Notes under the pieces: model-generated
Databases searched by the model: none
Told to the model about the DNA's origin: nothing
What the model saw: the letters and a program-made list of their open reading frames with translations, nothing else
Sequence record: NC_052661.1
DNA: 64,000 bases
Direction: 5' to 3' (one strand)
From: Escherichia phage ukendt
Made by a program: the position numbers and the translations under genes
In this document: in pieces, positions 3,059-49,017 of the stretch
How the letters are laid out: every line of letters starts with the position of its first letter
Numbering within the stretch: the first letter of the stretch is position 1

Positions 3059-3529
3059 CTAAGCTGGCATGATTAAAAAAGAACTCTCCACTTCAAAATG
3101 CCAATCATCTACAAGCCCTGATTCCCAATCCTTCTCTTCATGGAAAGAGCAAATCCAACGGTACATACCTGGCGGTGTATTCTCAACATCTTCTGGCAAC
3201 CCATAATCCAAAGCTGTCTTACCGTTCTCGGTAAAACCAGGATGGAGATTAGGAGCTTTCAGTACAGAAACCATACCTCCAACATCTACAGCCACGATCC
3301 ACTCTGTCATGTATGGGCTGTCATATTGAGGCTCATCAGAACCTACCTCAACAGCCTCTGTGCGTAAGATGATAATAGCCTGCTCTGTGATTGGGGCTTT
3401 GACAATATACCCGTGATCCTCAAAAAGATCGATAACCTCGAACTCATCGCCGTTTTCGATACCATAGCTCTTATTCAAAGAGATAAACTTCGGGTTATCA
3501 TCGTAAGCTTTAGTTACTTTAATTTTCAT
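3059..3529 (-). CDS. hypothetical early protein
   Basis: 156-aa ORF, acidic; tightly packed with neighbours. Confidence 0.4.
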   Translation of the reverse strand: MKIKVTKAYDDNPKFISLNKSYGIENGDEFEVIDLFEDHGYIVKAPITEQAIIILRTEAVEVGSDEPQYDSPYMTEWIVAVDVGGMVSVLKAPNLHPGFTENGKTALDYGLPEDVENTPPGMYRWICSFHEEKDWESGLVDDWHFEVESSFLIMPA

Positions 3530-3911: not shown

Positions 3912-4189
3912 TTTGCATTCCTCTTATTATTGATAACATCCATAGCAGTATATGGTTTATTAGTGCCATGATACTCCAGAATCATTGGAGAGCCTTCTTG
4001 CACTACTTCAAAAATACCATAAACAGAACTTTCAGCAAATACCATTTGCTTCGTGCCTTCATCGTTTACAACGAGAGAAAACTTCTTGCCTGTCCCGTTG
4101 AGGATCTCGTATTTCTTGCCAGCAGTGAATAATCCAGAGTACCACTCGTTATCTGTTGCTTTTACACACTTCAGGAAAGTCTTGATCAT
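3908..4189 (-). CDS. hypothetical early protein
   Basis: 93-aa ORF; start/stop overlaps with flanking ORFs. Confidence 0.35.
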   Translation of the reverse strand: MIKTFLKCVKATDNEWYSGLFTAGKKYEILNGTGKKFSLVVNDEGTKQMVFAESSVYGIFEVVQEGSPMILEYHGTNKPYTAMDVINNKRNAK

Positions 4190-4539
4190 TTCTTTTTGCT
4201 CCTCTTTTTAGATTTCTCATACAAACCTAACACAGCCGCCTCTTTTGCACAAGTAGGAACTGAAGTCATTCCTCTTCGTTTTGCTTCTGGTAGTTGCAAA
4301 GTCCATATTCCCCACCAATAAATTTGGTCTGCCGTGAGTGGTTCAGCCATTGGATCTGCCTCCTGCTCCTCAAGACGTTGCAACGCTTCTTCAATCTTCT
4401 CGATTGGTGTGTCAAAGACGAATGCCTCCGTATCAAATTTATCTTTCTTAGGAACTGATTTGGCTACTTTGAGAACCTCGTTTTTCGGTTTCTTAGTAAC
4501 GTTCTTTGGCTTTGATAACTTCTTCGGTGTTTTCGCCAC
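4186..4539 (-). CDS. hypothetical Lys-rich protein (possible nucleic-acid binding)
   Basis: GTG start at 4539..4537 with GGAGG RBS 6 nt upstream; very basic N-terminus and KKRSKKK C-terminus. Confidence 0.4.
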   Translation of the reverse strand: MAKTPKKLSKPKNVTKKPKNEVLKVAKSVPKKDKFDTEAFVFDTPIEKIEEALQRLEEQEADPMAEPLTADQIYWWGIWTLQLPEAKRRGMTSVPTCAKEAAVLGLYEKSKKRSKKK

Positions 4540-6804: not shown

Positions 6805-6879
6805 GGCCCTGTAGCTCAATGGGAGAGCTGTCGGCTCATAACCGATAGGTAGCTGGATCGAAACCAGCCAGGGCCACCA
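6805..6879 (+). tRNA. tRNA-Met (anticodon CAT; elongator vs initiator vs Ile-lysidine not resolved)
   Basis: Hand-folded cloverleaf: acceptor GGCCCTG/CAGGGCC, D-stem GCTC/GAGC, anticodon loop CTCATAA, T-arm GCTGG-ATCGAAA-CCAGC, encoded CCA. Confidence 0.75.
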
Positions 6880-6881
6880 AC

Positions 6882-6956
6882 GTCTTTATGGTGTAATGGA
6901 TAGCACAGGAGTCTTCTAAACTCTTAGTCAAGGTTCGATTCCTTGTAAAGACACCA
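6882..6956 (+). tRNA. tRNA-Arg (anticodon TCT)
   Basis: Acceptor GTCTTTA/TAAAGAC, anticodon loop CTTCTAA, T-arm CAAGG-TTCGATT-CCTTG, encoded CCA. Confidence 0.75.
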
Positions 6957-7028
6957 GAACATTTTAACATGAATTAGCTCAAGTGATTTGAACCCACTAC
7001 TGATCATGGTGGCAGAGAATGAGGTAAG

Positions 7029-7100
7029 TATGTCAGACATTATAAACAAAGGCCACGGTTATATTAGAAGACATAAATGCTCGAAGAGCACCGTTCGCTG
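7029..7100 (+). CDS. possible 23-codon micro-ORF between tRNA blocks
   Basis: ATG 7029 with GAGG 5 nt upstream; MSDIINKGHGYIRRHKCSKSTVR; may equally be untranslated spacer or RNA. Confidence 0.15.
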
Positions 7101-7152
7101 AGAACGGGGGTTGGTGGAGTCACCATTCATGGTAAAATGTTTTAAAAAACTA

Positions 7153-7182
7153 TTGACAACTAACACTATTTTATGTTAGATT
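7153..7182 (+). promoter_or_regulatory. sigma70-like promoter (TTGACA, 18 nt, TG-extended TAGATT)
   Basis: Exact -35 at 7153..7158; predicted start site a few nt before tRNA-Ser at 7191. Confidence 0.5.
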
Positions 7183-7190
7183 ATAAGCAT

Positions 7191-7281
7191 GGAAGGGCAA
7201 ATCGACGTGGCGACGAAAACGGTCTTGAAAACCGCCGAGCTTGAAAGAGCCTTGGGAGTTCGACTCTCCCTCCTTCCGCCA
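7191..7281 (+). tRNA. tRNA-Ser (anticodon TGA), type II
   Basis: Acceptor GGAAGGG/TCCTTCC, anticodon arm ACGGT-CTTGAAA-ACCGC, long variable arm, T-arm GGGAG-TTCGACT-CTCCC, G73, CCA. Confidence 0.7.
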
Positions 7282-7285
7282 GATT

Positions 7286-7371
7286 GGTAGATTGGTGAAA
7301 TGGTAGCCACGACAGTTTGCTAAACTGTAGTCGGAAACGGCGTGTAGGTTCGAGTCCTACATCTACCGCCA
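7286..7371 (+). tRNA. tRNA-Ser (anticodon GCT), type II
   Basis: Acceptor GGTAGAT/ATCTACC, anticodon arm ACAGT-TTGCTAA-ACTGT, long variable arm, T-arm GTAGG-TTCGAGT-CCTAC, G73, CCA. Confidence 0.75.
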
Positions 7372-7501
7372 AGTTCTTTTTAATGTAGCTTACTTTAGCA
7401 GAGTAAATCTTCGGCAAGTGGCGGTAACCACTTTACCGATACCTCATAGTTAGTGGTGTGAACACTGGCTATTTTAAAAAGAATTTAAATATTAGTATTT
7501 A

Positions 7502-7589
7502 GGTGAGTTAATTCCGTAGGGGTAGCGGGGCAGACTGTAAATCTGTTATCATTGCGATTCGGGTGGTTCGACTCCATCACTCACCACCA
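7502..7589 (+). tRNA. tRNA-Tyr (anticodon GTA), type II, with atypical 5' region
   Basis: Acceptor GGTGAGT/ACTCACC perfect, anticodon arm GCAGA-CTGTAAA-TCTGT, A73, CCA; junction between acceptor and D-arm is longer than canonical. Confidence 0.5.
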
Positions 7590-7595
7590 AATTAA

Positions 7596-7681
7596 GATGA
7601 GTTGGCTGAATGGTTTAAGCGGCGGACTGTTAATCCGTGTTCGAAAGAACAATATAGGTTCGAATCCTATACTCATCGCCA
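7596..7681 (+). tRNA. type II (long variable arm) tRNA with anticodon GTT; isotype ambiguous (Ser-like body, Asn anticodon)
   Basis: Acceptor GATGAGT/ACTCATC, D-stem GCT/AGC, anticodon arm GCGGA-CTGTTAA-TCCGT, variable-arm hairpin GTTC-GAAA-GAAC, T-arm ATAGG-TTCGAAT-CCTAT, G73, CCA. Confidence 0.55.
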
Positions 7682-7688
7682 GAATTAT

Positions 7689-7765
7689 GGACTTGTAGAG
7701 TTAAGGTAAACCCCCAGTCGCCAATAGGCTTCTGGAATTGCAGGTATCGAATCCTGCCGAGTCCC
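7689..7765 (+). pseudogene. tRNA-like remnant (acceptor and T-arm-like pairing, no canonical anticodon arm)
   Basis: GGACTTG...CGAGTCC acceptor-like pairing, T-like GCAGG-TATCGAAT-CCTGC with 8-nt loop, no encoded CCA, no 5-bp/7-nt anticodon arm found. Confidence 0.25.
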
Positions 7766-7771
7766 AGCATT

Positions 7772-7846
7772 GCTCCTATAGTATAATGGCTATTACAACG
7801 GTTTTGTAATCCGTGGATCTCTGTTCGATTCAGTGTGGGAGCACCA
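7772..7846 (+). tRNA. tRNA-Thr (anticodon TGT)
   Basis: Acceptor GCTCCTA/TGGGAGC with one G-U pair, anticodon loop TTTGTAA, T-loop TTCGATT, encoded CCA. Confidence 0.65.
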
Positions 7847-8118
7847 ACACAACATTAAGAGCACTGTGATTGATCGTCGTATCCTGTGCACAAGGTCTGC
7901 TCGAAAGACAGTGTTCTTAGTATTGTGTTGATCACAAAAAGAGTCACCCGAAACTTGACCGGAGTAGGGTTGGATGGGGCAAAATGAGAAGCGGCTCTCC
8001 CATCGACAGCAACGAAGAATAATATTTGACTTTGGTTTTGTATTATTTAAGTTAGCTTACCGAACGTAGGGCTAGTCACCCAACGGGATACTCGTCACTG
8101 TCCCAATCAATAAAAGTC

Positions 8119-8148
8119 TTGACAACAAATAGTAAAATGTAGTATAGT
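8119..8148 (+). promoter_or_regulatory. sigma70-like promoter (TTGACA, 18 nt, TG-extended TATAGT)
   Basis: Exact -35 at 8119..8124 and TATAGT at 8143..8148; predicted start just upstream of tRNA-Gly. Confidence 0.55.
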
Positions 8149-8159
8149 AAAGATATAGG

Positions 8160-8233
8160 GCGTTCTTGGTGTAGCGGTAGCATTCCGTCCTTCCAAGTCG
8201 GCGGCACGAGTTCGATCCTCGTAGAACGCTCCA
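8160..8233 (+). tRNA. tRNA-Gly (anticodon TCC)
   Basis: Acceptor GCGTTCT/AGAACGC, anticodon loop CTTCCAA, T-arm ACGAG-TTCGATC-CTCGT, encoded CCA. Confidence 0.7.
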
Positions 8234-8330
8234 AATTATTTAATAAAGGGTTGCCAGAAAACTTTCTCTTTTACTCATGGTTTTCTCCTTCTCTCACACT
8301 TCTTCTGGTTGCCCTTCATTAAATGATTTT

Positions 8331-8406
8331 TGGTTTGTAGTGTAGTCCGGTAGCACACGACACTTTGACTGTCGTAGGTTTGGTTCAAATCCAGACAGAC
8401 CAGCCA
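8331..8406 (+). tRNA. tRNA-Gln (anticodon TTG)
   Basis: U1-A72 pair and G73 as in enterobacterial tRNA-Gln; anticodon arm CGACA-CTTTGAC-TGTCG; T-loop TTCAAAT; CCA. Confidence 0.7.
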
Positions 8407-8411
8407 TATAA

Positions 8412-8488
8412 CGGAATTTAGCTCAGTTTGGTAGAGTGTACGCTTTGGGAGCGTATTGTCGCAGGTTCGAATCCTGCAATTCCGACCA
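8412..8488 (+). tRNA. tRNA-Pro (anticodon TGG)
   Basis: Acceptor CGGAATT/AATTCCG, anticodon arm TACGC-TTTGGGA-GCGTA, T-arm GCAGG-TTCGAAT-CCTGC, CCA. Confidence 0.8.
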
Positions 8489-8494
8489 ATTAAA

Positions 8495-8568
8495 TGTTTC
8501 GTAGTTCAATGGTAGAACCCACGACTGATAATCGTGAGACACAAGTTCGATTCTTGTCGAAACAACCA
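8495..8568 (+). tRNA. tRNA-Ile (anticodon GAT)
   Basis: Acceptor TGTTTCG/CGAAACA, D-arm GTTC-AATGGTA-GAAC, anticodon arm CACGA-CTGATAA-TCGTG, T-arm ACAAG-TTCGATT-CTTGT, CCA. Confidence 0.8.
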
Positions 8569-8570
8569 GT

Positions 8571-8643
8571 TTCCCGTTAGACTTACAGGATAAGAGTTCC
8601 ACAGCTTATTGTGATGCTGGTTCGAATCCAGCACGGGATACAT
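8571..8643 (+). pseudogene. tRNA-like remnant (good T-arm, degenerate anticodon arm, no CCA)
   Basis: T-arm GCTGG-TTCGAAT-CCAGC and 6/7 acceptor pairing (TTCCCGT/ACGGGAT); no acceptable anticodon stem-loop. Confidence 0.25.
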
Positions 8644-8646
8644 AAT

Positions 8647-8725
8647 AGCGGGATAGAGGAGTCTGGTCGTCCTCGCCAGTTTCATATGCTGGAGATCATT
8701 GGTTCAAATCCGATTCCCGCCTCCA
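8647..8725 (+). tRNA. second CAT-anticodon tRNA (Met/initiator/Ile-lysidine), with a 1-72 mismatch
   Basis: Anticodon arm CCAGT-TTCATAT-GCTGG, T-loop TTCAAAT, acceptor AGCGGGA/TCCCGCC with an A1-C72 mismatch, CCA. Confidence 0.6.
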
Positions 8726-19704: not shown

Positions 19705-21078
19705 ATGGCAACTTTTCGTGAAAAGGTAGCAACCGTAACTTTACTGTATGGTGCTACATCAATTCGTGAAACCCAGTTCGATATTCCCCTGATCCTTACA
19801 GGTCAGAACGTAACTGGCGAAGCGATTCAATATTACTCTTCTTCCGATGCACTTTTGGAAGCAGGTTATGGATTAAATGATCCAGCGTATATTATGGCAG
19901 TCAAACTGTTTAACGGTTTGTTCCCACCAGATCAAGTTATGGTTGGTAAGCGTGAAGTTACAAACTTTACTCTAACTCCAATCGTAGAAGATAGTACAAC
20001 TTACACAATTACCATCAAAAATGGTACCAAGAAAAAAGAATTTAAATTCATTGCTGATGACACTGCAACTGCACAAGAGATTGTAGTTGGTCTGACTGAA
20101 ATGATCAATGCAGATCTTGTTTATGGCCCACTGTTTACAGTAGCTAACAACGGCGCTGCAATGACTTTCACTCCAGTAGAAGGTAAGTTTGGTTCTATTG
20201 ACAGCACAGGTTTCACTCAAGAAACTGTCTATGCTAATGCTATTACGGAAGATATCGCTGCTCTGCATGATATTGATAGTAGCTGGTTCTGGACCCTTTC
20301 AGATTCCCATGAAACAGAAGATGTTCTAGCTTTGGCTGCATGGGTAGAAGAGAATGATAAAGTTTACTTCTTCTCTAGCTCTGAACCTGGAATTAAAACG
20401 AAAGCAGAAGATAACGTTCTGGAACGACTGAATGACCTCGGTTATAATAACACTTGCTTTGCTTTGTGGATGACTGATGCAGATTCTGTATTCCCAGAAG
20501 CAGCAGTTGTTGGTGCAATCTGTTCTCGTCAACCTGGTTTAACTACTCTTCACGGTAAAACACTGGTAGGTGTAGAGATCGAGAAACTGGATCAGACTTC
20601 GGAAAACAATATTGTTCAACAGAACGGTAACATCTATCGTAAAGAGCATGGAACTCTGTTCTATCGTGATGGATTGATGGTTAGCGGTTTCTTTGTTGAC
20701 TATGTTGTTCATGCTTTGTGGTTTAAAGCTCGCACAGAAGAATCACTGTTTACACTGTTTAAACAACAGTCTATGCTGGGTGGTGGTGTTCGTGCTACTT
20801 CAAACGGTCTAGCTTTGATTCGACAAGCTGTTCTGGCTAACCCGATCCAAGTAGGTATCCTCAACGGTTCCATCGCTAATGAAGTTGTTACTTCTGAAGA
20901 GACTGGTTTGCGTGTCGATCTGAAACCTATTGTTTATATTCCTTCTCGTGCCGATATGACCGATGCGCAAATCAATGCTCGTCTGGTTGATGGGATGAAG
21001 ATTGAATATGTTTACGCTGGCTTCTTCCATTACGTTAAAGTTCAGGTCAACGTCCTGACTAACCGTACTGCAAACTAA
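19705..21078 (+). CDS. tail sheath protein (tentative)
   Basis: 457-aa ORF followed by a ~160-aa tube-sized ORF, a frameshifted chaperone and the tape measure; baseplate wedge-like gene further on supports a contractile tail. Confidence 0.5.
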   Translation: MATFREKVATVTLLYGATSIRETQFDIPLILTGQNVTGEAIQYYSSSDALLEAGYGLNDPAYIMAVKLFNGLFPPDQVMVGKREVTNFTLTPIVEDSTTYTITIKNGTKKKEFKFIADDTATAQEIVVGLTEMINADLVYGPLFTVANNGAAMTFTPVEGKFGSIDSTGFTQETVYANAITEDIAALHDIDSSWFWTLSDSHETEDVLALAAWVEENDKVYFFSSSEPGIKTKAEDNVLERLNDLGYNNTCFALWMTDADSVFPEAAVVGAICSRQPGLTTLHGKTLVGVEIEKLDQTSENNIVQQNGNIYRKEHGTLFYRDGLMVSGFFVDYVVHALWFKARTEESLFTLFKQQSMLGGGVRATSNGLALIRQAVLANPIQVGILNGSIANEVVTSEETGLRVDLKPIVYIPSRADMTDAQINARLVDGMKIEYVYAGFFHYVKVQVNVLTNRTAN

Positions 21079-21083
21079 TACGG

Positions 21084-21100
21084 CGGGGGTTAAGCCCCCG
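21084..21100 (+). terminator. GC-rich hairpin after the sheath gene (weak terminator or stability element)
   Basis: CGGGGG-TTAAG-CCCCCG; downstream T-tract is poor. Confidence 0.35.
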
Positions 21101-21124
21101 TTATCAAAATAAAGAGGATCTATA

Positions 21125-21604
21125 ATGGATAAAATGCTTACTGGCGTAATGGCCTACGACCCATCTCAAGTTATCCTTTCATTAGGTGGTTGGGAACCGT
21201 GGGGTTTTGCGGCTGATACTAAAATCGTTATTGCTAAATCTAACGATATTATCAACCCTTATTCAGGGACTGATGGGGACGTTTCATTAGCTTTGAGTCG
21301 TAACCGTTTGGGAACACTCACAATGTCTTTGCAACGCACATCTCCAGCTAACGAAGTACTTGCAACATATGCACAAACAATGTATTCTACTCGTCAAGTA
21401 GCATTCAGTGTTTACTTGGAAGACCCACGTGGCTATTACATTAGCACGATTGGATGGATTCAAAGTCAGCCTGAAGATACTATTGGCGAAATGATTACAG
21501 AGAACCAATGGGTTATTGGTCTTAAAGATGCAAGCCTTCTGCGTAATGAAGTTGGTGTAGGTTTGAGCACCCTTAACTCAATCTCTGCTCTGACAATTCA
21601 ATAA
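21125..21604 (+). CDS. tail tube protein (tentative)
   Basis: 159-aa ORF between sheath-like gene and chaperone; flanked by terminator hairpins. Confidence 0.5.
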   Translation: MDKMLTGVMAYDPSQVILSLGGWEPWGFAADTKIVIAKSNDIINPYSGTDGDVSLALSRNRLGTLTMSLQRTSPANEVLATYAQTMYSTRQVAFSVYLEDPRGYYISTIGWIQSQPEDTIGEMITENQWVIGLKDASLLRNEVGVGLSTLNSISALTIQ

Positions 21605-21611
21605 TAAATAA

Positions 21612-21632
21612 AGGGCAGAAATGCCCTTTTTA
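21612..21632 (+). terminator. rho-independent terminator after the tube gene
   Basis: AGGGCA-GAAA-TGCCCT hairpin followed by TTTTTA. Confidence 0.65.
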
Positions 21633-21649
21633 TCATTAGAGAGGAAAAT

Positions 21650-22132
21650 ATGTCACAAGAACAAGATAACACAATTCAAAAATATGCTCGACCAGAAGAA
21701 GTAGTTGAGATTCCATTAGATGGAAACAGATCTGTTACTTTCCGTATTATGAAATGGAGTCCATCTAAAGTGTTCGACAGGATTCCAGAATTAGGTAGTG
21801 TTCTGGTTGTTCCTATGACTATGTATAGCACAGCAACAATGTCCGCAGACGAAGACCTTGAGTCACGTATTGCTATGGCACTGATCCAACTTTTTGCAGG
21901 TTTGGAAGAAAAGAATTTAACTGTCTTTTTGCGTAAAATTTTAGATGAGGTTTATACCCAAGACGGTTATAACGTTGCAGAAAATTTTGATGAATTATTT
22001 ATGGCTCACCCAGAACTAGTGTTAGATCTTACTGCTAAAGTTCTGGAGGTAAACTACGGCCCTTTTTTCAAACGAGGTTTCGGAAAACTGTTCACACAGC
22101 TTCAGGCGATGACGAGTTTAGCAGCAAATTAA
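21650..22132 (+). CDS. tail assembly chaperone (short, in-frame product)
   Basis: 160-aa acidic ORF directly upstream of the tape measure; contains slippery heptamer T-TTT-TTC. Confidence 0.55.
   Translation: MSQEQDNTIQKYARPEEVVEIPLDGNRSVTFRIMKWSPSKVFDRIPELGSVLVVPMTMYSTATMSADEDLESRIAMALIQLFAGLEEKNLTVFLRKILDEVYTQDGYNVAENFDELFMAHPELVLDLTAKVLEVNYGPFFKRGFGKLFTQLQAMTSLAAN
22063..22069 (+). promoter_or_regulatory. -1 programmed ribosomal frameshift slippery site (TTTTTTC)
   Basis: X-XXY-YYZ heptamer in the zero frame of the chaperone ORF; the -1 frame is open from 22039 through 22398. Confidence 0.5.
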
Positions 22133-22398
22133 CACCTGCGATTGAACATGCTATCGACACAGCAACGAAAACCCTTACTTTGAAGTGGTATGAGGTTATT
22201 CTTTGCAAAGTCGTTAAAGATACCTCGGAAACACTGAAAACATTAGATAACTACGGTGTAGATTATCTTTTAAAACTATATGAGTATTTAACATACGAAG
22301 AGTATGTTGAAGCCATGTATGTTAAAGACACTTCAATAAAGAGAAAACATCAAAACCAGACAAATAAAATGTCAGATTTGTTTAAGAAACTTGTTTAA
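22069..22398 (+). CDS. C-terminal extension of the chaperone made by -1 frameshift (fusion of about 248 aa)
   Basis: -1 frame open across the overlap; the downstream track ORF has only a TTG start and no RBS, consistent with expression by frameshift. Confidence 0.45.
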   Translation, partial: QTRFRKTVHTASGDDEFSSKLTPAIEHAIDTATKTLTLKWYEVILCKVVKDTSETLKTLDNYGVDYLLKLYEYLTYEEYVEAMYVKDTSIKRKHQNQTNKMSDLFKKLV

Positions 22399-22418
22399 TC
22401 CAACACGAGGAACATACT

Positions 22419-24407
22419 TTGTTAGAAATTAACGCCTCCAGAATTAGTAACGTGGTTACGTTTAAGGTGGACAAGAACAGTCTCAAGGAAGCAAAAGATG
22501 CCGTGTTGAGTGTTCAGAAGTTTGCAAATAAAATGCAACCCACTATGAACATGACCAAGTTTAGACAACAAATGAAAGAGATTGAACGTGAACTTAAGAA
22601 AGCTCAAACTCAAAGCCAAAAACCTATGCGAGCACCTACTCCCGCTGGAGCGGGTGCTCCTGTAGGTGGTTCTGGTAGACCTAGAACTCCTAAAACCCCA
22701 CAAGGTAGAGAAGAAGAAAAAGCTCGTAAAGCGGCTGAACGCGAAGCTAAAGCAGCAGCACGTAGGGAAGACTTAGGTAATCTTCGTTTACAGAACTTTA
22801 ACTATCGAGCAAGAGCATTTAGTAAAGCCAGTCCTGGAGCTATGCAAGAAGCTAGAGACGTTATGGGTAAAGCTGTAGAGCAATACAAAAAAGGTGAAAT
22901 AACTCTTCAACGTATGAACCAAGCTCTTGCTCACCAGTTAGATGCTTTACGCAGATCTCATCGTGAAAAGAATGCTGAAATAGAAGATGAGGTTCGCGGT
23001 CGTCGCCGTATTCGTAGAGAGCTAGAAGCAGAAGCTAAAATGCGTATACGTATGCGAAATCGTGAACTTAGGGATATAGAACGAAATCGTAAGCGTGAAT
23101 TGGCACAACAAAAACGTGATCGTGATCGTAGATATGGACAACTAAAAGAAGGTGCAGCAGGTCTTAATCCACGCATGATTGCATCCTCTTTGATTGGTGC
23201 TGGGCTGTTTGCAGGTGGTTCTGTAGTTGGTAACACGTTGATGAATACTAACGAAAGAATTAAACTTGTAAGCCGTGGTGCTGAAAACGTTCAGACAAAC
23301 GCCAACGCTATTTTGGCAATGACAGCTTGGGGTGAACAGAACGGTGTAGACTCTGCAAATATTATTAAATCAATAGATAATATTAAAGACGTTCGTGAAC
23401 GTCTTGGTAATACAGTTTTAGCTGCAAAGTGGAATGAGAAAGAAGGGAAGTGGAAAGGCGGTGATAATGGCATAACTGACATTATGAACTTGTTTGGATG
23501 GAATCCAGAACAGCTTAAACCTTTACAGAACGATCCTTTAGCTTTTATTCAGGCTACTGTTAATGAAGGTGAGCGTCGAGGTATGAACTCTGCTCAAATA
23601 GGGCGACTTCTTGAAAACCTTGGTGATGACCTTATGCACTACCAACGTATGTTTAGTAAAAACGGCGAAGGGTATAATGAAGTATTGAAAATGCTTCAAA
23701 GAACAGGTGCAACATTAACTCAAGAACAAATAGATGCTTCTAAAGAGTTTACTCGTTTTGCTGCAACAGTTCAGCTTGTAGGTCAAGGTATGCAGAACCA
23801 CTTCTTAGAGGGTTTTGTGAAAGCCTTACCTAAAGATGATTCTTGGTTGGATAACGTTAAAGTGCTAGATCAGTTTGCCAAAGATTTAGGTGAAGAACTC
23901 GGTAAGACAACAGTTCAATTAGGAGGTTTTGCTAAAGAATTGGGAGATGGTTTCGGATCTTTTACCAATTGGCTTAAAGAAACATTCCCAGATACATTCG
24001 GAGACAACACAGATCCTAATAAATCTATGGCACAAAAAGCATACGAGGCAACGCAAAGTGGAGACAGCAATCCTGTAGCAGATTGGTTGTACAATTTAAC
24101 AGGTATTGATACACAAGACATTGGTCGTATGTGGAGAGGAGAACAAACAAGGACACGTGCTTTTGGATTTGGTAATCCTCTTGAAGATTTACGTGAATCA
24201 GCCTACACACCTAACGTAAGTTTGGCTCGTAATCAACCTGTTGTTGAGAATACGGTAGCAATACCAAGTGATCTTATCAAAGTTACGATCAGCCCTTCTT
24301 CAGAGTTTGGAAATATTCTTGATGCAAGAATTCAAAATAGCGGAAATAGCATTTTCCAACGTTTGTCTCTTTCAACTCTAAGTGGACAATCTAACACTGG
24401 TGGTTAA
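22419..24407 (+). CDS. tail tape measure protein
   Basis: 662 aa; long Arg/Glu/Ala-rich predicted coiled-coil; sits after the frameshifted chaperone; TTG start with GAGGA RBS. Confidence 0.7.
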   Translation: MLEINASRISNVVTFKVDKNSLKEAKDAVLSVQKFANKMQPTMNMTKFRQQMKEIERELKKAQTQSQKPMRAPTPAGAGAPVGGSGRPRTPKTPQGREEEKARKAAEREAKAAARREDLGNLRLQNFNYRARAFSKASPGAMQEARDVMGKAVEQYKKGEITLQRMNQALAHQLDALRRSHREKNAEIEDEVRGRRRIRRELEAEAKMRIRMRNRELRDIERNRKRELAQQKRDRDRRYGQLKEGAAGLNPRMIASSLIGAGLFAGGSVVGNTLMNTNERIKLVSRGAENVQTNANAILAMTAWGEQNGVDSANIIKSIDNIKDVRERLGNTVLAAKWNEKEGKWKGGDNGITDIMNLFGWNPEQLKPLQNDPLAFIQATVNEGERRGMNSAQIGRLLENLGDDLMHYQRMFSKNGEGYNEVLKMLQRTGATLTQEQIDASKEFTRFAATVQLVGQGMQNHFLEGFVKALPKDDSWLDNVKVLDQFAKDLGEELGKTTVQLGGFAKELGDGFGSFTNWLKETFPDTFGDNTDPNKSMAQKAYEATQSGDSNPVADWLYNLTGIDTQDIGRMWRGEQTRTRAFGFGNPLEDLRESAYTPNVSLARNQPVVENTVAIPSDLIKVTISPSSEFGNILDARIQNSGNSIFQRLSLSTLSGQSNTGG

Positions 24408-46344: not shown

Positions 46345-49017
46345 ATGTTTCCAATTCCAATATTTACTATTATGACCAGCACTGGTGTCGTTCCTCTGCC
46401 AGCGGGTATTGTTAAAAAAGTAATCACTTTAGATTACCCAGACAATGCTGGTAATTCTAACAGCAGTTTAGCAATTTTGCTTAACGATGGTAGATTGTTT
46501 ACTCAAGGTGCAAACCTTTTTGGTGAGATTGCAGATGGAACTCGTAGTGCACGATTCAATAATTTCCACTTAGCTTCTACTGTAGTAGCGGATGTGTTTA
46601 CCGCAGATCGTTGTTTTGTTATTAAAACTAATAGTGGGGGATGGCAATATTCAGGATTGACAGCAGGGTTGGTAGGATCTATAGCAGCAGGTGGTGCGGA
46701 TGCATGTGTAACTACTTGGACCAGCTTTCCATCTGTAATAACGGGGACTATCTCTTTAGCCAATCTTAAAGAGGTTAAGGGAGGATATAACAACACTCTC
46801 TGGTTAATGAATAGTGGTGTTCTTTATGGATCGGGTCAAAACACAGTAGGCAGTTTAGGTGCAAGTACTACTAACGAAGTTTCTACTCCTCGTCAAATAA
46901 CGAGTGCAGCAGTTGCTTTTGATGCAGGTTACAACCAATGCTCTTATGTCAACAATGTGGGAACCTTGCGTGTTTGTGGAGCCAGCAAAGGTTTAGCAGG
47001 TAATAATAACACAACAAAAGCTTTTGTAAATGCTACGATATCCACTACTGAAACAGTGTATGTCAAAGATTACATCAATACCGTTTCCCAGACAATAGTT
47101 GTAGGAGATACCTCCGGTGGAACTGGTACAACAAACTACCTTTATGTTAGATCTAATACAGAAACAACCTACACTAAGCTGGATACCTTTGCAGCAGGTT
47201 TCTCAACATGGAAGTTTCCACCGAGCCGTCACTCTTTTTTCGTTGGGATTAATAATTCCTTGTGGGCTATCGGTAAGAACTATACGGCAAACTTAGGTCT
47301 GGGGTATGATTCTGCGAGCGGAGATCCACTCCAAGTGGGAAAACCAGTTAAACCTGAAGGAGTGGGTTCCTGGGATATAAACAAGCTCACAAGCGTTCAT
47401 ACGCTGAATATGGATGTTACTAACCAATTAGGTTATCAAGGAACATTTTTCGTTTATAATGGAAGTATGTATTATTCCGGTATTTGGAAAGATGGGAAAG
47501 CGTCATATCTGTTCAATAGCGGTCTAAACTATAATAAATTCACACCAATAGCAAGCTCCGTGATTACGGGTGATGTGCTGGCAACTAGCTTAACTACAGA
47601 TTCTTTAGGAATTTGTATTGTAGGTGGAACTAAACAGTTGACACATTCTGTTAGCCCAGAAGGAGGTAAACTTTTCAATATTAAATACACTTCTTCTGCC
47701 CCTGCAAACATGACAATATCATCTACTGGCTTAATGACTTTCCAAGCAGAAGGTGGTTTTGATGCAGGTATGACAGCCTTAAACGCTGAAGGAACAACTC
47801 TATCAGATATCTCTGGAGGATATGCTTCAACATTGAGCGTTTACACCCCTAGCTTATCTGCGATGGATGTAGGAACAACACAAACAATGGTAGCAGAAAT
47901 AACGCCAACAGGAGCAGCAAGCTTACCTGGTATGGTTGTTGAGTATACAACTACAGATCCTAGTGTTGCTACAGTAGATCCTACAACTGGCGTAATAACT
48001 GGAGTTGGTGATGGTGGTTGTAGAATTGGTTGCACAGCTACGTATCAAGGTGTTGTTACCGCTTCTGATAGTTCTTATTTAACGGTGAACGCTGTTGCGG
48101 GAAAGGAGTTAGCTCCATCTCCGAGTAGTAGTTTAACGGTTCTAAACGGATATTTCAACCACTCGGCAGATGGGGCGATTACGTTCCCAACTTTATCGGG
48201 TACTGTTACACCAGCTAACTTTGTAGTTAAGGTGGATGACGTTGTAGTTCCTTCAAGTAAAGTAATATTTAGAAATAAAGCTTTCTCTACAGTGGATAGT
48301 TATCCAGCAGGAGAATATAGACTGGCTATTGAATTTGCAAGTGCTTCTGTAGTTAATAATGTTGAGGTATCTATGGAAGCAAATCCAGATCTTTTAGAAT
48401 TGTGGGGCGGCAACAGGATTGGTTATTCTACAAGCCCAGCCTCACAGTTCTTAAAAGGTTGTGCTAACTTAAGACGAATAACCTCTGATTGTTTTAGTAA
48501 CACATCTTACACCGGAACGTCTATAAGTGGTATTTTCTCTGGCTGCACAAGTTTGACAGCTATCCCTGAAGGATTATTCAGCGATACTTTATTTCCTTCG
48601 ATGACAACAATGTCAAGCACGTTTGAAGGTTGTACGTCTTTAACATCTATTCCTTCTGATTTATTTAAAAATTTATCAAAAGTTACAAGATACTCTTACA
48701 CCTTTAAAAATTGCACCTCTCTTGCAGAAGTTCCAGCCGGAATGTTTGACAATATTCCAACGAAAGTAACCTCTTTAACAGCTACGTTCCAAGGTTGTTT
48801 AGCACTTACAGATTTTAATAAAATCTTTAATGACAACCCAGGGTTAACGGTTTGTGGTCAACGTGGAGCATTGTCTTCTTTCTTTAGTGGATGCACAAAT
48901 CTTACAGGAACAGGAGTAACATTAACAAGCACATTAGGTGGAGCAGCTAATAGTTACCTATTCAGGTATTGCACAAAACTTTCTGATTATAACAACATTC
49001 CTTCGGGTTATAAATAA
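46345..49017 (+). CDS. multidomain adhesin-like tail protein (RCC1-like repeats, Ig-like segment, BspA-type leucine-rich repeats)
   Basis: 890 aa; N-terminal repeated G-x-N-x-x-G-x-L-G units; central TTTDPSVATVDPTTGVITGVGDGG segment; C-terminal repeats of F.GCTSLT.IP..LF. Confidence 0.5.
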   Translation: MFPIPIFTIMTSTGVVPLPAGIVKKVITLDYPDNAGNSNSSLAILLNDGRLFTQGANLFGEIADGTRSARFNNFHLASTVVADVFTADRCFVIKTNSGGWQYSGLTAGLVGSIAAGGADACVTTWTSFPSVITGTISLANLKEVKGGYNNTLWLMNSGVLYGSGQNTVGSLGASTTNEVSTPRQITSAAVAFDAGYNQCSYVNNVGTLRVCGASKGLAGNNNTTKAFVNATISTTETVYVKDYINTVSQTIVVGDTSGGTGTTNYLYVRSNTETTYTKLDTFAAGFSTWKFPPSRHSFFVGINNSLWAIGKNYTANLGLGYDSASGDPLQVGKPVKPEGVGSWDINKLTSVHTLNMDVTNQLGYQGTFFVYNGSMYYSGIWKDGKASYLFNSGLNYNKFTPIASSVITGDVLATSLTTDSLGICIVGGTKQLTHSVSPEGGKLFNIKYTSSAPANMTISSTGLMTFQAEGGFDAGMTALNAEGTTLSDISGGYASTLSVYTPSLSAMDVGTTQTMVAEITPTGAASLPGMVVEYTTTDPSVATVDPTTGVITGVGDGGCRIGCTATYQGVVTASDSSYLTVNAVAGKELAPSPSSSLTVLNGYFNHSADGAITFPTLSGTVTPANFVVKVDDVVVPSSKVIFRNKAFSTVDSYPAGEYRLAIEFASASVVNNVEVSMEANPDLLELWGGNRIGYSTSPASQFLKGCANLRRITSDCFSNTSYTGTSISGIFSGCTSLTAIPEGLFSDTLFPSMTTMSSTFEGCTSLTSIPSDLFKNLSKVTRYSYTFKNCTSLAEVPAGMFDNIPTKVTSLTATFQGCLALTDFNKIFNDNPGLTVCGQRGALSSFFSGCTNLTGTGVTLTSTLGGAANSYLFRYCTKLSDYNNIPSGYK

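Follow-up and report, generated by a model that had tools for sequence, protein, structure and literature searches.

Likely programmed -1 ribosomal frameshifting of the G/GT type at the tail assembly chaperone locus of a phAPEC8-like myovirus

A programmed -1 ribosomal frameshift of the G/GT type very probably operates in this phAPEC8-like myovirus, within the gene for its tail assembly chaperone. The earlier note had proposed that the reading frame downstream of the chaperone is made as a fusion to it through such a shift, and our analysis supports this proposal in silico by the register of the slippery sequence, its conservation, the coding pattern of the -1 frame and the lack of a start codon of its own.

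Organization of the chaperone locus

The window, which is the whole stretch of 64,000 nucleotides that was analysed, comes from a Phapecoctavirus with 99.7% identity to Escherichia phage ESCO13. On the same strand, the sheath gene (19705-21078) is followed by the tube gene, the chaperone ORF, the extension ORF and the tape measure gene. The features of the locus are as follows.

21125..21604, plus strand: tail tube gene (phrog_280, E = 3.1e-35), directly 5' of the chaperone gene
21650..22132, plus strand: short-form tail assembly chaperone (TAC-N), zero frame, 160 aa, 18.2 kDa, stop TAA at 22130-22132
22039..22132, plus strand: overlap that must contain the 0 to -1 shift, with the -1 frame open and the zero frame unterminated
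22045..22050, plus strand: SD-like GGAGGT within the chaperone coding sequence, a candidate upstream stimulator spaced 12 nt from the heptamer
22060..22069, plus strand: slippery run C_CCT_TTT_TTC, with the core heptamer T_TTT_TTC (22063-22069) as the proposed -1 shift site
22069..22398, plus strand: -1 extension QTRFRK...KKLV, 109 codons plus TAA at 22396-22398
22419..24407, plus strand: tape measure protein gene (phrog_16051, 1246 bits), adjoining the 3' end of the extension

The chaperone ORF matches Pfam family PF21822 (Phage_TAC_15) with 84.3 bits (cut-off 22) and phrog_3840 with E = 2.8e-55, and it is labelled 'tail assembly chaperone' in the RefSeq records of ESCO13 and phAPEC8. These family profiles, and a location flanked by the tube and tape measure genes, identify the short ORF as a tail assembly chaperone. 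The tube gene gives 24.4 bits with Pfam KPP10_Orf10, slightly under the cut-off of 25, and its counterparts in relatives are named 'potential tail tube' or 'tail tube protein'. The tape measure gene starts with TTG, with GAGGA at 22407-22411, and this TTG is also the annotated start in ESCO13 and phAPEC8. By PHROG, Pfam and RefSeq, the chaperone ORF and the extension are located between the tube and tape measure genes on one strand, which is the position of a G/GT pair. When the PDB was searched by sequence with the TAC-N profile, no significant relative was found (best E = 0.16). The AlphaFold2 model of the 249-aa fusion, built with 40 database homologues, had a mean pLDDT of 44 and a pTM of 0.24; it was unusable and did not confirm the fold.

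The zero-frame codons at the proposed site are GGC (22058-60), CCT (22061-63), TTT (22064-66) and TTC (22067-69), followed by AAA. Since the codons read in this way, T_TTT_TTC at 22063-22069 is an X_XXY_YYZ heptamer in the correct register, and its placement in the chaperone zero frame by the earlier note is confirmed. The T run here is exactly T6 (22063-22068). In E. coli, frameshifting is favored by UUY codons in the A site and by heptamers made up of pyrimidines only, and U_UU.U_UU.C agrees with the rules obtained by experiment for heptamers at which shifts occur readily in this host (PMC4066793). We also observed a second, overlapping heptamer, C_CCT_TTT at 22060-22066, which the earlier note did not contain. 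This heptamer is specific to Stephanstirmvirinae, and a shift at either heptamer gives an identical protein. As in G/GT genes, a slippery sequence in the zero frame lies within the overlap, namely T_TTT_TTC and also C_CCT_TTT.

A TAA at 22036-22038 closes the -1 frame, which is then free of stops from 22039 as far as the TAA at 22396-22398; it overlaps the zero frame by 94 nt and runs 266 nt beyond the zero-frame stop. It had been claimed that this frame stays open across the short-form stop at 22132 up to 22398, and it does. A +1 shift was ruled out, as the +1 frame is closed (open at 22122-22145 only). Residues 1-140 together with the extension make up the predicted long form, TAC-NC, of 249 aa and 28.8 kDa, and the one frameshifted gene is written as join(21650..22069, 22069..22398). 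The first -1-frame codons after the shift are CAA ACG AGG. The predicted tryptic junction peptide of the long form is VLEVNYGPFFQTR, and its short-form counterpart is VLEVNYGPFFK. The extension matches phrog_16039 (E = 1.2e-44) and phrog_10409 of Vequintavirinae (E = 3.9e-9), and no Pfam family was matched. It comprises a domain of about 75 residues after a short linker, and this domain is predicted to be helical in the low-confidence model.

The sole ATG, GTG or TTG of the -1 frame ahead of the conserved domain is the TTG at 22180, and no SD-like motif is present in the 15 nt upstream of it (GCAACGAAAACCCTT). The statement that the downstream ORF has only a TTG start and no RBS therefore holds for starts ahead of the conserved domain, and the second ORF overlaps the first without a credible start or RBS, as in a G/GT arrangement.

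Conservation of the site and coding status of the -1 frame

We compared 64 related loci, comprising 21 from GenBank (13 Stephanstirmvirinae and eight further loci with amino-acid identities down to about 30%, rV5-like Vequintavirinae included) and 43 from IMG/VR. Throughout this set of Stephanstirmvirinae and rV5-like Vequintavirinae, T_TTT_TTC is in frame (64/64) and the -1 frame is open for 242-278 nt beyond the stop (64/64). In line with the description of the arrangement as a conserved feature directly upstream of tape measure genes, the tape measure gene is the next gene here and the arrangement is kept in all 64 loci. In the relatives, closure of the -1 frame falls, where checked, 9-36 nt before the heptamer, and the zero-frame stop lies 60-105 nt 3' of it. 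Since the upstream -1 closure and the zero-frame stop bound a shared bracket, the heptamer is the sole conserved slippery motif within it. The codon 5' of Phe-Phe is CCT, TGT or TCT (Pro, Cys or Ser), with T at the wobble base without exception, and the Vequintavirinae loci examined read TGT TTT TTC. The Phe-Phe codons are TTT TTC in all relatives, with a T run of exactly 6 and never longer. Because the preceding codon varies while its wobble T and TTT TTC are fixed, selection acts on the nucleotides rather than on the peptide.

The sequence beyond the zero-frame stop is most variable at the third positions of -1-frame codons. Mean pairwise diversity at -1 positions 1, 2 and 3 was 0.36, 0.24 and 0.60, respectively, in Stephanstirmvirinae and 0.31, 0.26 and 0.60, respectively, in Vequintavirinae. 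A homologous -1-frame domain is present in both subfamilies at about 30% identity, and tblastn with the fused protein gave two-piece matches, in two frames, in these phages; about 357 GenBank records were tblastn-positive. Judged by this codon-position pattern, the extension evolves as -1-frame coding sequence under purifying selection. In the overlap region, diversity was not lowered overall and zero-frame position 3 was the most variable there; therefore the C-terminal tail of the short form dominates the constraint, and the -1 stretch is a looser linker. The diversity of the overlap region is neutral, speaking neither for nor against the shift.

A separate small gene, starting at TTG 22180 or ATT 22141 or translated by reinitiation after the stop at 22130-22132, is the alternative that public records favor, but we consider it very improbable. 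ESCO13 carries a separate CDS equivalent to window positions 22141-22398 (ATT) and phAPEC8 one equivalent to 22180-22398, protein databases store the extension as 'hypothetical proteins' of 64-84 aa, and phrog_16039 models it as a 72-aa family. However, the annotated starts disagree with each other, being ATT, TTG or ATG at varying positions, or no CDS is given at all. The TTG at 22180 has no SD in front of it, an ATG, GTG or TTG between the heptamer and the conserved Trp is missing in nine of 27 relatives, and a 4-nt SD-like match is found upstream of just two of 24 candidate starts, at differing positions. The conserved residues RFR[KR], followed by xPxIxxAxxxA...W, begin in the -1 frame 5' of every candidate start codon. 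Finally, a separate gene would have no need for a frame that, in all 64 loci, is open back into the chaperone gene as far as precisely the in-frame slippery heptamer.

We infer that the slip is ribosomal. The same six T residues (22063-22068) could in principle act on RNA polymerase, which would add one U, and the edited mRNA would then be read normally into a nearly identical product with one additional Phe. Such transcriptional slippage fits a homopolymeric T run that is invariant in all relatives and has no 3' RNA structure, but we regard it as very improbable. Productive bacterial slippage of this type has been described for runs of about nine A or T (PMC5009743), whereas the run is exactly 6 in all lineages. 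As a weaker point, the register of the heptamer and its fixed 3' C are needed by tandem slippage on the ribosome and not by the polymerase, although the Phe-Phe peptide partly fixes them.

The gene-like ORFs of the window contain 0.0048 in-frame X_XXY_YYZ heptamers per codon, and since this gives about 0.15 expected in the 31-codon overlap, the motif alone is not significant and is weak evidence by itself. The length of the -1 extension past the stop was dropped as a stand-alone statistic. Extensions of at least 200 nt are found in 18 of 57 ORFs because the next gene overlaps in that frame, and this measure, being uninformative alone, was therefore replaced by a heptamer-anchored control. When 73 of the 86 in-frame heptamers counted in the window were scored, the two heptamers of the chaperone gene were followed by 109-110 open -1 codons, and the next best had 44 (median 6). 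That the overlap is a chance or relic arrangement with an unexpressed -1 ORF is extremely improbable, for all that the heptamer count alone would allow it, given that this ORF is under purifying selection as coding sequence, is homologous across subfamilies and is an outlier among the heptamer-associated -1 frames of the window.

Candidate stimulators and comparison with known systems

The duplex of GGAGGT with the 3' end of 16S rRNA has an energy of -10.6 kcal/mol, which is in the top 1% or so of 20-nt windows in structural genes. Glu in the element is encoded by GAG, the less frequent of the two Glu codons here (68 GAG vs 210 GAA). An equivalent SD-like element (-6.4 kcal/mol or lower, with a spacer of 11-13 nt) is present in 22 of 27 relatives and missing in five, a count that is confounded by the conserved L-E-V peptide. 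Based on these observations, GGAGGT is a possible stimulator of the frameshift. A downstream stimulatory hairpin, proposed as a check on the frameshift, was searched for by folding, by comparison of relatives and by RNAalifold, and none was found. Single-sequence folding of 22063-22160 gave z = -0.23 against shuffles, with no stable 3' structure; no common hairpin was seen in the 70 nt after the heptamer across 27 relatives; and the RNAalifold consensus of 14 Stephanstirmvirinae was -0.18 kcal/mol with 0 compensatory pairs. When we scanned 21600-22500 with Rfam, no frameshift element was detected, and the sole match was a sub-threshold SraG (E = 0.54). In most but not all rV5-like loci, a small CGAAA...UUUCG hairpin lies 1 nt after the heptamer; it is absent in the window.

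The locus resembles several known recoding systems. In lambda gpG/gpGT, as in the window, two overlapping ORFs are located between the tail tube or major tail gene and the tape measure gene (Levin, Hendrix & Casjens 1993; Xu, Hendrix & Duda 2004, 2013, 2014; reviewed in PMC5009743). The second ORF is likewise in the -1 frame without a start of its own, and by analogy with lambda, the expected products would have a common N-terminus, with the short form in the majority and the long form in the minority. The lambda heptamer is G_GGA_AAG, in comparison with T_TTT_TTC in the window, and the lambda site is likewise not known to need a strong 3' structure. Unlike the phage of the window, which is a myovirus, lambda is a siphovirus, and the window proteins have no detectable sequence similarity to gpG or gpT, the short form falling in PF21822 (Phage_TAC_15). 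E/E+E' of P2 is reportedly a myovirus analogue of G/GT (Christie et al. 2002). P2 also has a contractile tail, with the chaperone pair between the sheath and tube genes and the tape measure gene, and a -1 slip occurs there on the poly-T heptamer T_TTT_TTG. Its chaperone belongs to a protein family different from that of the window, and because the last base of the heptamer is G rather than C, the A site takes tRNA-Leu in P2 but tRNA-Phe in the window.

Two further E. coli systems share parts of the site. Like the window, dnaX has a tandem-slippage heptamer, and it has an internal upstream SD-like element. In dnaX the SD is spaced by 10 nt and is effective at distances of roughly 10-14 nt; GGAGGT, its possible counterpart in the window, is at 12 nt. 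However, dnaX depends on a strong 3' hairpin and has a shift rate of about 50%, whereas the window has no 3' structure, with no stable stem-loop of the dnaX type 5-9 nt after the heptamer, and the possible counterpart of the dnaX SD is not universal among the relatives of the window. In T7 gene 10A/10B, a -1 slip takes place on Phe codons at G_GUU_UUC. It resembles the window in this slip on Phe codons, in belonging to an E. coli phage and in giving a minor product with a C-terminal extension, but gene 10 encodes a capsid protein instead of a chaperone and involves a distant 3' element (PMC5009743).

A further comparison is with Vandenendeviridae (Pakpunavirus Adele) and Andersonviridae, for which a 2025 paper put forward a conserved -1 frameshift at GTTTTT, a motif located at the 3' end of TAC-N (PMC12846349). 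In these families the poly-T is invariant, the -1 frame is uninterrupted in all genomes, and the downstream ORF is routinely mis-annotated as hypothetical (PMC12846349). They are sister clades of Stephanstirmvirinae and Vequintavirinae and have the same locus layout as the window. GTTTTT is contained in the TGT TTT TTC of Vequintavirinae, whereas in Phapecoctavirus the preceding codon is CCT instead of the xGT of the sister-clade motif, giving the extended run C_CCT_TTT_TTC. The 2025 report does not describe a site for Stephanstirmvirinae or Vequintavirinae (PMC12846349).

Proposed products, annotation and significance

Based on the frameshift reading, translation of 21650-22132 would end for the majority of ribosomes with release of the 160-aa short chaperone. 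The others, a minority, would slip back by 1 nt with tRNA-Phe on TTT in the P site and on TTC in the A site of T_TTT_TTC (22063-22069), and each tRNA-Phe would then pair anew with a TTT codon of the -1 frame. Slippage one codon earlier, on C_CCT_TTT, may occur instead in this lineage and would give the same protein. After the slip, reading would resume at CAA 22069 and end at TAA 22396-22398, and the 249-aa product would consist of the N-terminal 140 residues common to the short form, the short linker and the domain of about 75 residues. By analogy with lambda gpG/gpGT and P2 E/E+E', the N domain common to both forms would coat the tape measure protein and the rarer C domain would recruit tube subunits, and on the same analogy neither chaperone would end in the virion.

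The phage encodes tRNAs Pro-UGG, Gln-UUG, Thr-UGU and Arg-UCU at 6882-8488, and a broader joint reading can be put forward tentatively, though we think it rather doubtful as a whole. A single ancient poly-U site would then be common to the rV5 / phi92 / phAPEC8 / FelixO1 / PAK_P1 myovirus supergroup and would have been extended in Stephanstirmvirinae to the double-slippery C_CCT_TTT_TTC. An anti-SD interaction upstream, and not 3' RNA structure, would drive the shift, and the four phage tRNAs would read CCT and CAA ACG AGG, tuning the ratio of the short to the long form.

The shift is annotated in none of the 21 GenBank records inspected. No fused form was present among the matches from a collection of 5.8 billion proteins, in which the fused query retrieved only short forms of 158-175 aa, and the extension query retrieved only fragments of 64-84 aa among protein matches. 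The fused form is expected to be missing from databases because gene callers do not model frameshifts. In the literature, we found no reported frameshift for phAPEC8, phi92, rV5, Phapecoctavirus, Stephanstirmvirinae or Vequintavirinae, the sister-clade proposal (PMC12846349) being the only related one. Experimental data on these phages, whether from a western blot, a reporter assay or a junction peptide, were likewise not found there.

The site is an ordinary instance of a well-known feature that has been left out of the public annotations of this phage group. In more than 130 phAPEC8/phi92-like and more than 200 rV5-like public genomes, the extension is called as a free-standing 'hypothetical protein' with arbitrary starts or is uncalled, and PHROGs lists it under families without an assigned function. 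Many of the phages concerned are being considered for use in therapy. The value of the finding is in annotation, and the understanding of tail assembly or of recoding is unchanged by it. Recognising one frameshifted gene would give a function to the extension ORF and remove one spurious gene family, and it would extend the poly-T chaperone frameshift of the sister clades to two more subfamilies.

Gene neighbourhood and the slippery site

In the database search, region 21100-22500 matched Escherichia phage ESCO13 at 99.7% identity. Identity was at least 99% to some 60 phAPEC8-like members of the genus Phapecoctavirus (subfamily Stephanstirmvirinae) and 60-80% to a second set of about 63 records, phi92-like Justusliebigvirus among them. 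Records named as Campylobacter, Acinetobacter, Pseudomonas and Klebsiella phages (e.g. B15, ABPW7, ZCKP1) are about 99% identical here to the E. coli Phapecoctaviruses, and these odd host labels may come from contamination or an unusually broad host range; PsgM04F, labelled a Pseudomonas phage, shows ~73% identity. The region contains the following features.

19705-21078, + strand, tail sheath gene (phrog_205)
21125-21604, + strand, tube gene (phrog_280)
21650-22132, + strand, tail assembly chaperone ORF, 160 aa (PF21822 Phage_TAC_15 and phrog_3840)
ending at 22398, + strand, short -1-frame ORF
22419-24407, + strand, tape measure protein gene (phrog_16051)

Both Pfam (PF21822, 84.3 bits; cut-off 22) and PHROGs (phrog_3840, E = 2.8e-55) identify the 160-aa ORF as a tail assembly chaperone. 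The 45-nt gap between tube and chaperone genes holds a terminator-like hairpin at 21610-21629 (+), AAAGGGCA GAAA TGCCCTTT followed by TTAT (T-run to ~21634), where the phAPEC8 record carries an ARNold terminator annotation; it could lower transcription of chaperone and tape measure relative to sheath and tube. The tape measure apparently starts at TTG (22419), preceded by GAGGA at 22407-22411 with a 7-nt spacer, and the same start is found in deposited records, PsgM04F being annotated with a later one. The ORF list holds no ORF of at least 40 aa on the opposite strand within 22063-22398.

An earlier note had proposed that the chaperone is extended by a programmed -1 frameshift, and all of its sequence statements were correct. 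In the chaperone's register the site reads GGC CCT TTT TTC AAA, which places the X_XXY_YYZ heptamer T_TTT_TTC at 22063-22069. A second heptamer absent from that note, C_CCT_TTT (22060-22066), overlaps it, and since the run is homopolymeric, the protein would be identical whichever of the two the slip took place on. The -1 frame, closed upstream by TAA at 22036-22038, is open from 22039 to the TAA at 22396-22398, running past the zero-frame stop (TAA, 22130-22132). The +1 frame is closed.

In-frame heptamers occur at 0.0048 per codon in the window's gene-like ORFs, giving an expectation of about 0.15 in the 31-codon overlap, and the heptamer by itself is weak evidence. A long -1 extension by itself is uninformative, since neighbouring genes often overlap in the -1 frame (18 of 57 ORFs). 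Their combination is exceptional in the window: when 73 in-frame heptamers were scored, the two in the chaperone gene had 109-110 open -1 codons behind them, compared with 44 for the runner-up and a median of 6. Two other in-frame poly-T heptamers served only as controls. TTTTTTC at 47235-47241 (+), in frame inside ORF 46345-49017, is followed by fewer than 20 open -1 codons, outside the eight longest in the window; TTTTTTA at 3074-3080 (-), 21 nt ahead of the stop of minus-strand ORF 3059-3529, is followed by 44, probably part of the overlapping gene that comes next.

Conservation of the site and coding status of the extension

We compared 21 GenBank and 43 IMG/VR loci, including the rV5-like Vequintavirinae FV3, SSE121, Av-05, KB57, Hena1 and CB7, whose chaperones share only about 27-34% identity with that of the window. 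Without exception, these loci have T_TTT_TTC in register with the chaperone and a -1 frame that runs on uninterrupted for 242-278 nt past the zero-frame stop. When the conceptual 249-aa fusion was used as a tblastn query, two-piece, two-frame matches appeared throughout Stephanstirmvirinae and Vequintavirinae phages. Among 28 non-redundant loci, a stop closes the -1 frame 9-36 nt 5' of the heptamer and the zero frame terminates 60-105 nt 3' of it, so that the stretch common to all lineages has T_TTT_TTC as its only motif. The codon ahead of Phe-Phe varies between CCT (Pro), TGT (Cys) and TCT (Ser). Since the amino acid thus varies while the wobble T throughout and TTT TTC in all relatives checked are fixed, the pattern points to selection on the slippery nucleotide string rather than on the peptide. 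The long form might instead be made by transcriptional slippage, but this is unlikely because the T run is exactly six in all relatives, whereas productive bacterial slippage has been described on runs of about nine (PMC5009743).

Independent initiation or reinitiation of the extension is contradicted by the census of start codons, and also by the fact that all lineages keep the -1 frame open as far back as the heptamer. TTG at 22180 is the sole ATG, GTG or TTG in the -1 frame ahead of the extension's conserved part, no Shine-Dalgarno-like motif precedes it, and the first conserved extension residues lie well 5' of it. In 9 of 27 non-redundant relatives the interval from heptamer to conserved Trp contains no ATG, GTG or TTG; where candidate starts exist, their positions are not conserved, and a 4-nt Shine-Dalgarno-like match lies upstream in only 2 of 24. 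The extension has no independent start.

In the alignment, the extensions of the two subfamilies are homologous and share FF-x2-3-RFR[KR], a variable Gly/Ser/Asp-rich linker, and then xPxIxxAxxxA...SLxW[YF], GE/SET..SL[DE] and [LF]L.[LMQKV].E[YFAIG][LI]. From the back-translated fused-protein alignment we calculated mean pairwise diversity per -1-frame codon position 3' of the zero-frame stop. The values at positions 1, 2 and 3 were 0.36, 0.24 and 0.60 in Stephanstirmvirinae and 0.31, 0.26 and 0.60 in Vequintavirinae, and those of the zero-frame N-terminal part were 0.30, 0.19 and 0.51, and 0.29, 0.16 and 0.58, respectively. By this shared signature the -1 ORF is coding, and the purifying selection on the -1 frame contradicts its being a non-expressed relic.

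Proposed slippage and candidate stimulators

Tandem -1 ribosomal slippage on T_TTT_TTC is the best-supported reading. Two tRNA-Phe would slip together, and reading would pick up at CAA (22069), giving the predicted junction ...VLEVNYGPFF|QTRFRKTVH... and predicted products of 249 aa (28.8 kDa) and 160 aa (18.2 kDa). U_UU.U_UU.C fits the rules established experimentally in E. coli, by which UUN codons in the A site rank with those most prone to shifting, UUY codons do better when homogeneous than when heterogeneous, and X/Z combinations made up of pyrimidines are favourable (PMC4066793, section 17).

The downstream stimulatory hairpin considered in the earlier note was not borne out: folding against shuffled controls gave z = -0.23 with no outstanding 3' structure, the relatives share no 3' structure and give no covariation support, and the Rfam scan returned no matching element. 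On the upstream side, GGAGGT (22045-22050) has a pairing energy of -10.6 kcal/mol with the 16S 3' end, which ranks in the top ~1% among 20-nt windows of the structural genes, and its 12-nt spacing to the heptamer lies within the stimulatory range for dnaX-type -1 shifting. It uses GAG, the less frequent Glu codon (GAA vs GAG, 210 vs 68 in structural genes), and 22 of 27 relatives have a comparable element while five lack one. Because the sequence encodes a conserved L-E-V peptide, GGAGGT counts as a candidate rather than an established stimulator.

Most but not all of the rV5-like Vequintavirinae loci (L015-L020, L039, L042, L057, L062) carry CGAAAGACGGUUUCG, a 5-bp stem with a 5-nt loop that begins 1 nt 3' of T_TTT_TTC (1-15 nt after it), too near for a classical stimulator. 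It is absent from Stephanstirmvirinae and also codes for conserved G-F / R-F residues in two frames. Separately, 10 phage tRNA genes cluster at 6805-8725, without tRNA-Phe; the set includes tRNA-Pro(UGG), Gln(UUG), Thr(UGU) and Arg(UCU), which would decode CCT in the slippery run and the three codons that open the post-shift frame, CAA ACG AGG, a match that may be coincidence.

Annotation and relation to known systems

Public records treat the extension inconsistently. The ESCO13 RefSeq record starts it at ATT (22141-22398; 4042-4299 of its locus, L001), phAPEC8 at TTG (22180-22398; 1131-1349 of L004) and other records at various ATGs, and no gene is called there in SF1-1, tuntematon, alia and Hena1. 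PHROGs lists it as phrog_16039 and phrog_10409, function unknown. The 21 GenBank records inspected all lack a join annotation, and the protein databases contain no fused form, the matches being short forms of 158-175 aa and extension fragments of 64-84 aa.

The G/GT-type chaperone frameshift is conserved in long-tailed phages, as in lambda G/GT and P2 E/E+E' (Xu, Hendrix & Duda 2004; reviewed in PMC5009743), and by all sequence-testable defining features of that family the present site belongs to it. For the sister clades Vandenendeviridae and Andersonviridae, a chaperone frameshift was argued in a 2025 study of Pseudomonas phage Adele, which pointed to GTTTTT as an invariant motif close to the 3' terminus of TAC-N (the short form) and to an uninterrupted -1 frame, and stated that the ORF downstream of TAC-N is routinely mis-annotated as hypothetical (PMC12846349). 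Those clades resemble the window in having a poly-T motif near the TAC-N 3' end and an open -1 frame. The Adele study lists both Stephanstirmvirinae and Vequintavirinae among the relatives and does not report the site for them, and our literature search found no report of it in either subfamily.

The observation in the earlier note is confirmed, and the comparative evidence supports its interpretation, making a programmed -1 frameshift in the chaperone gene highly probable. It is a new, unannotated example of a well-known kind, its minor points of note being the extended decamer C_CCT_TTT_TTC, a possible Shine-Dalgarno-like stimulator and no 3' structure found, and its main value is an annotation correction for a large group of therapeutic-candidate coliphages.
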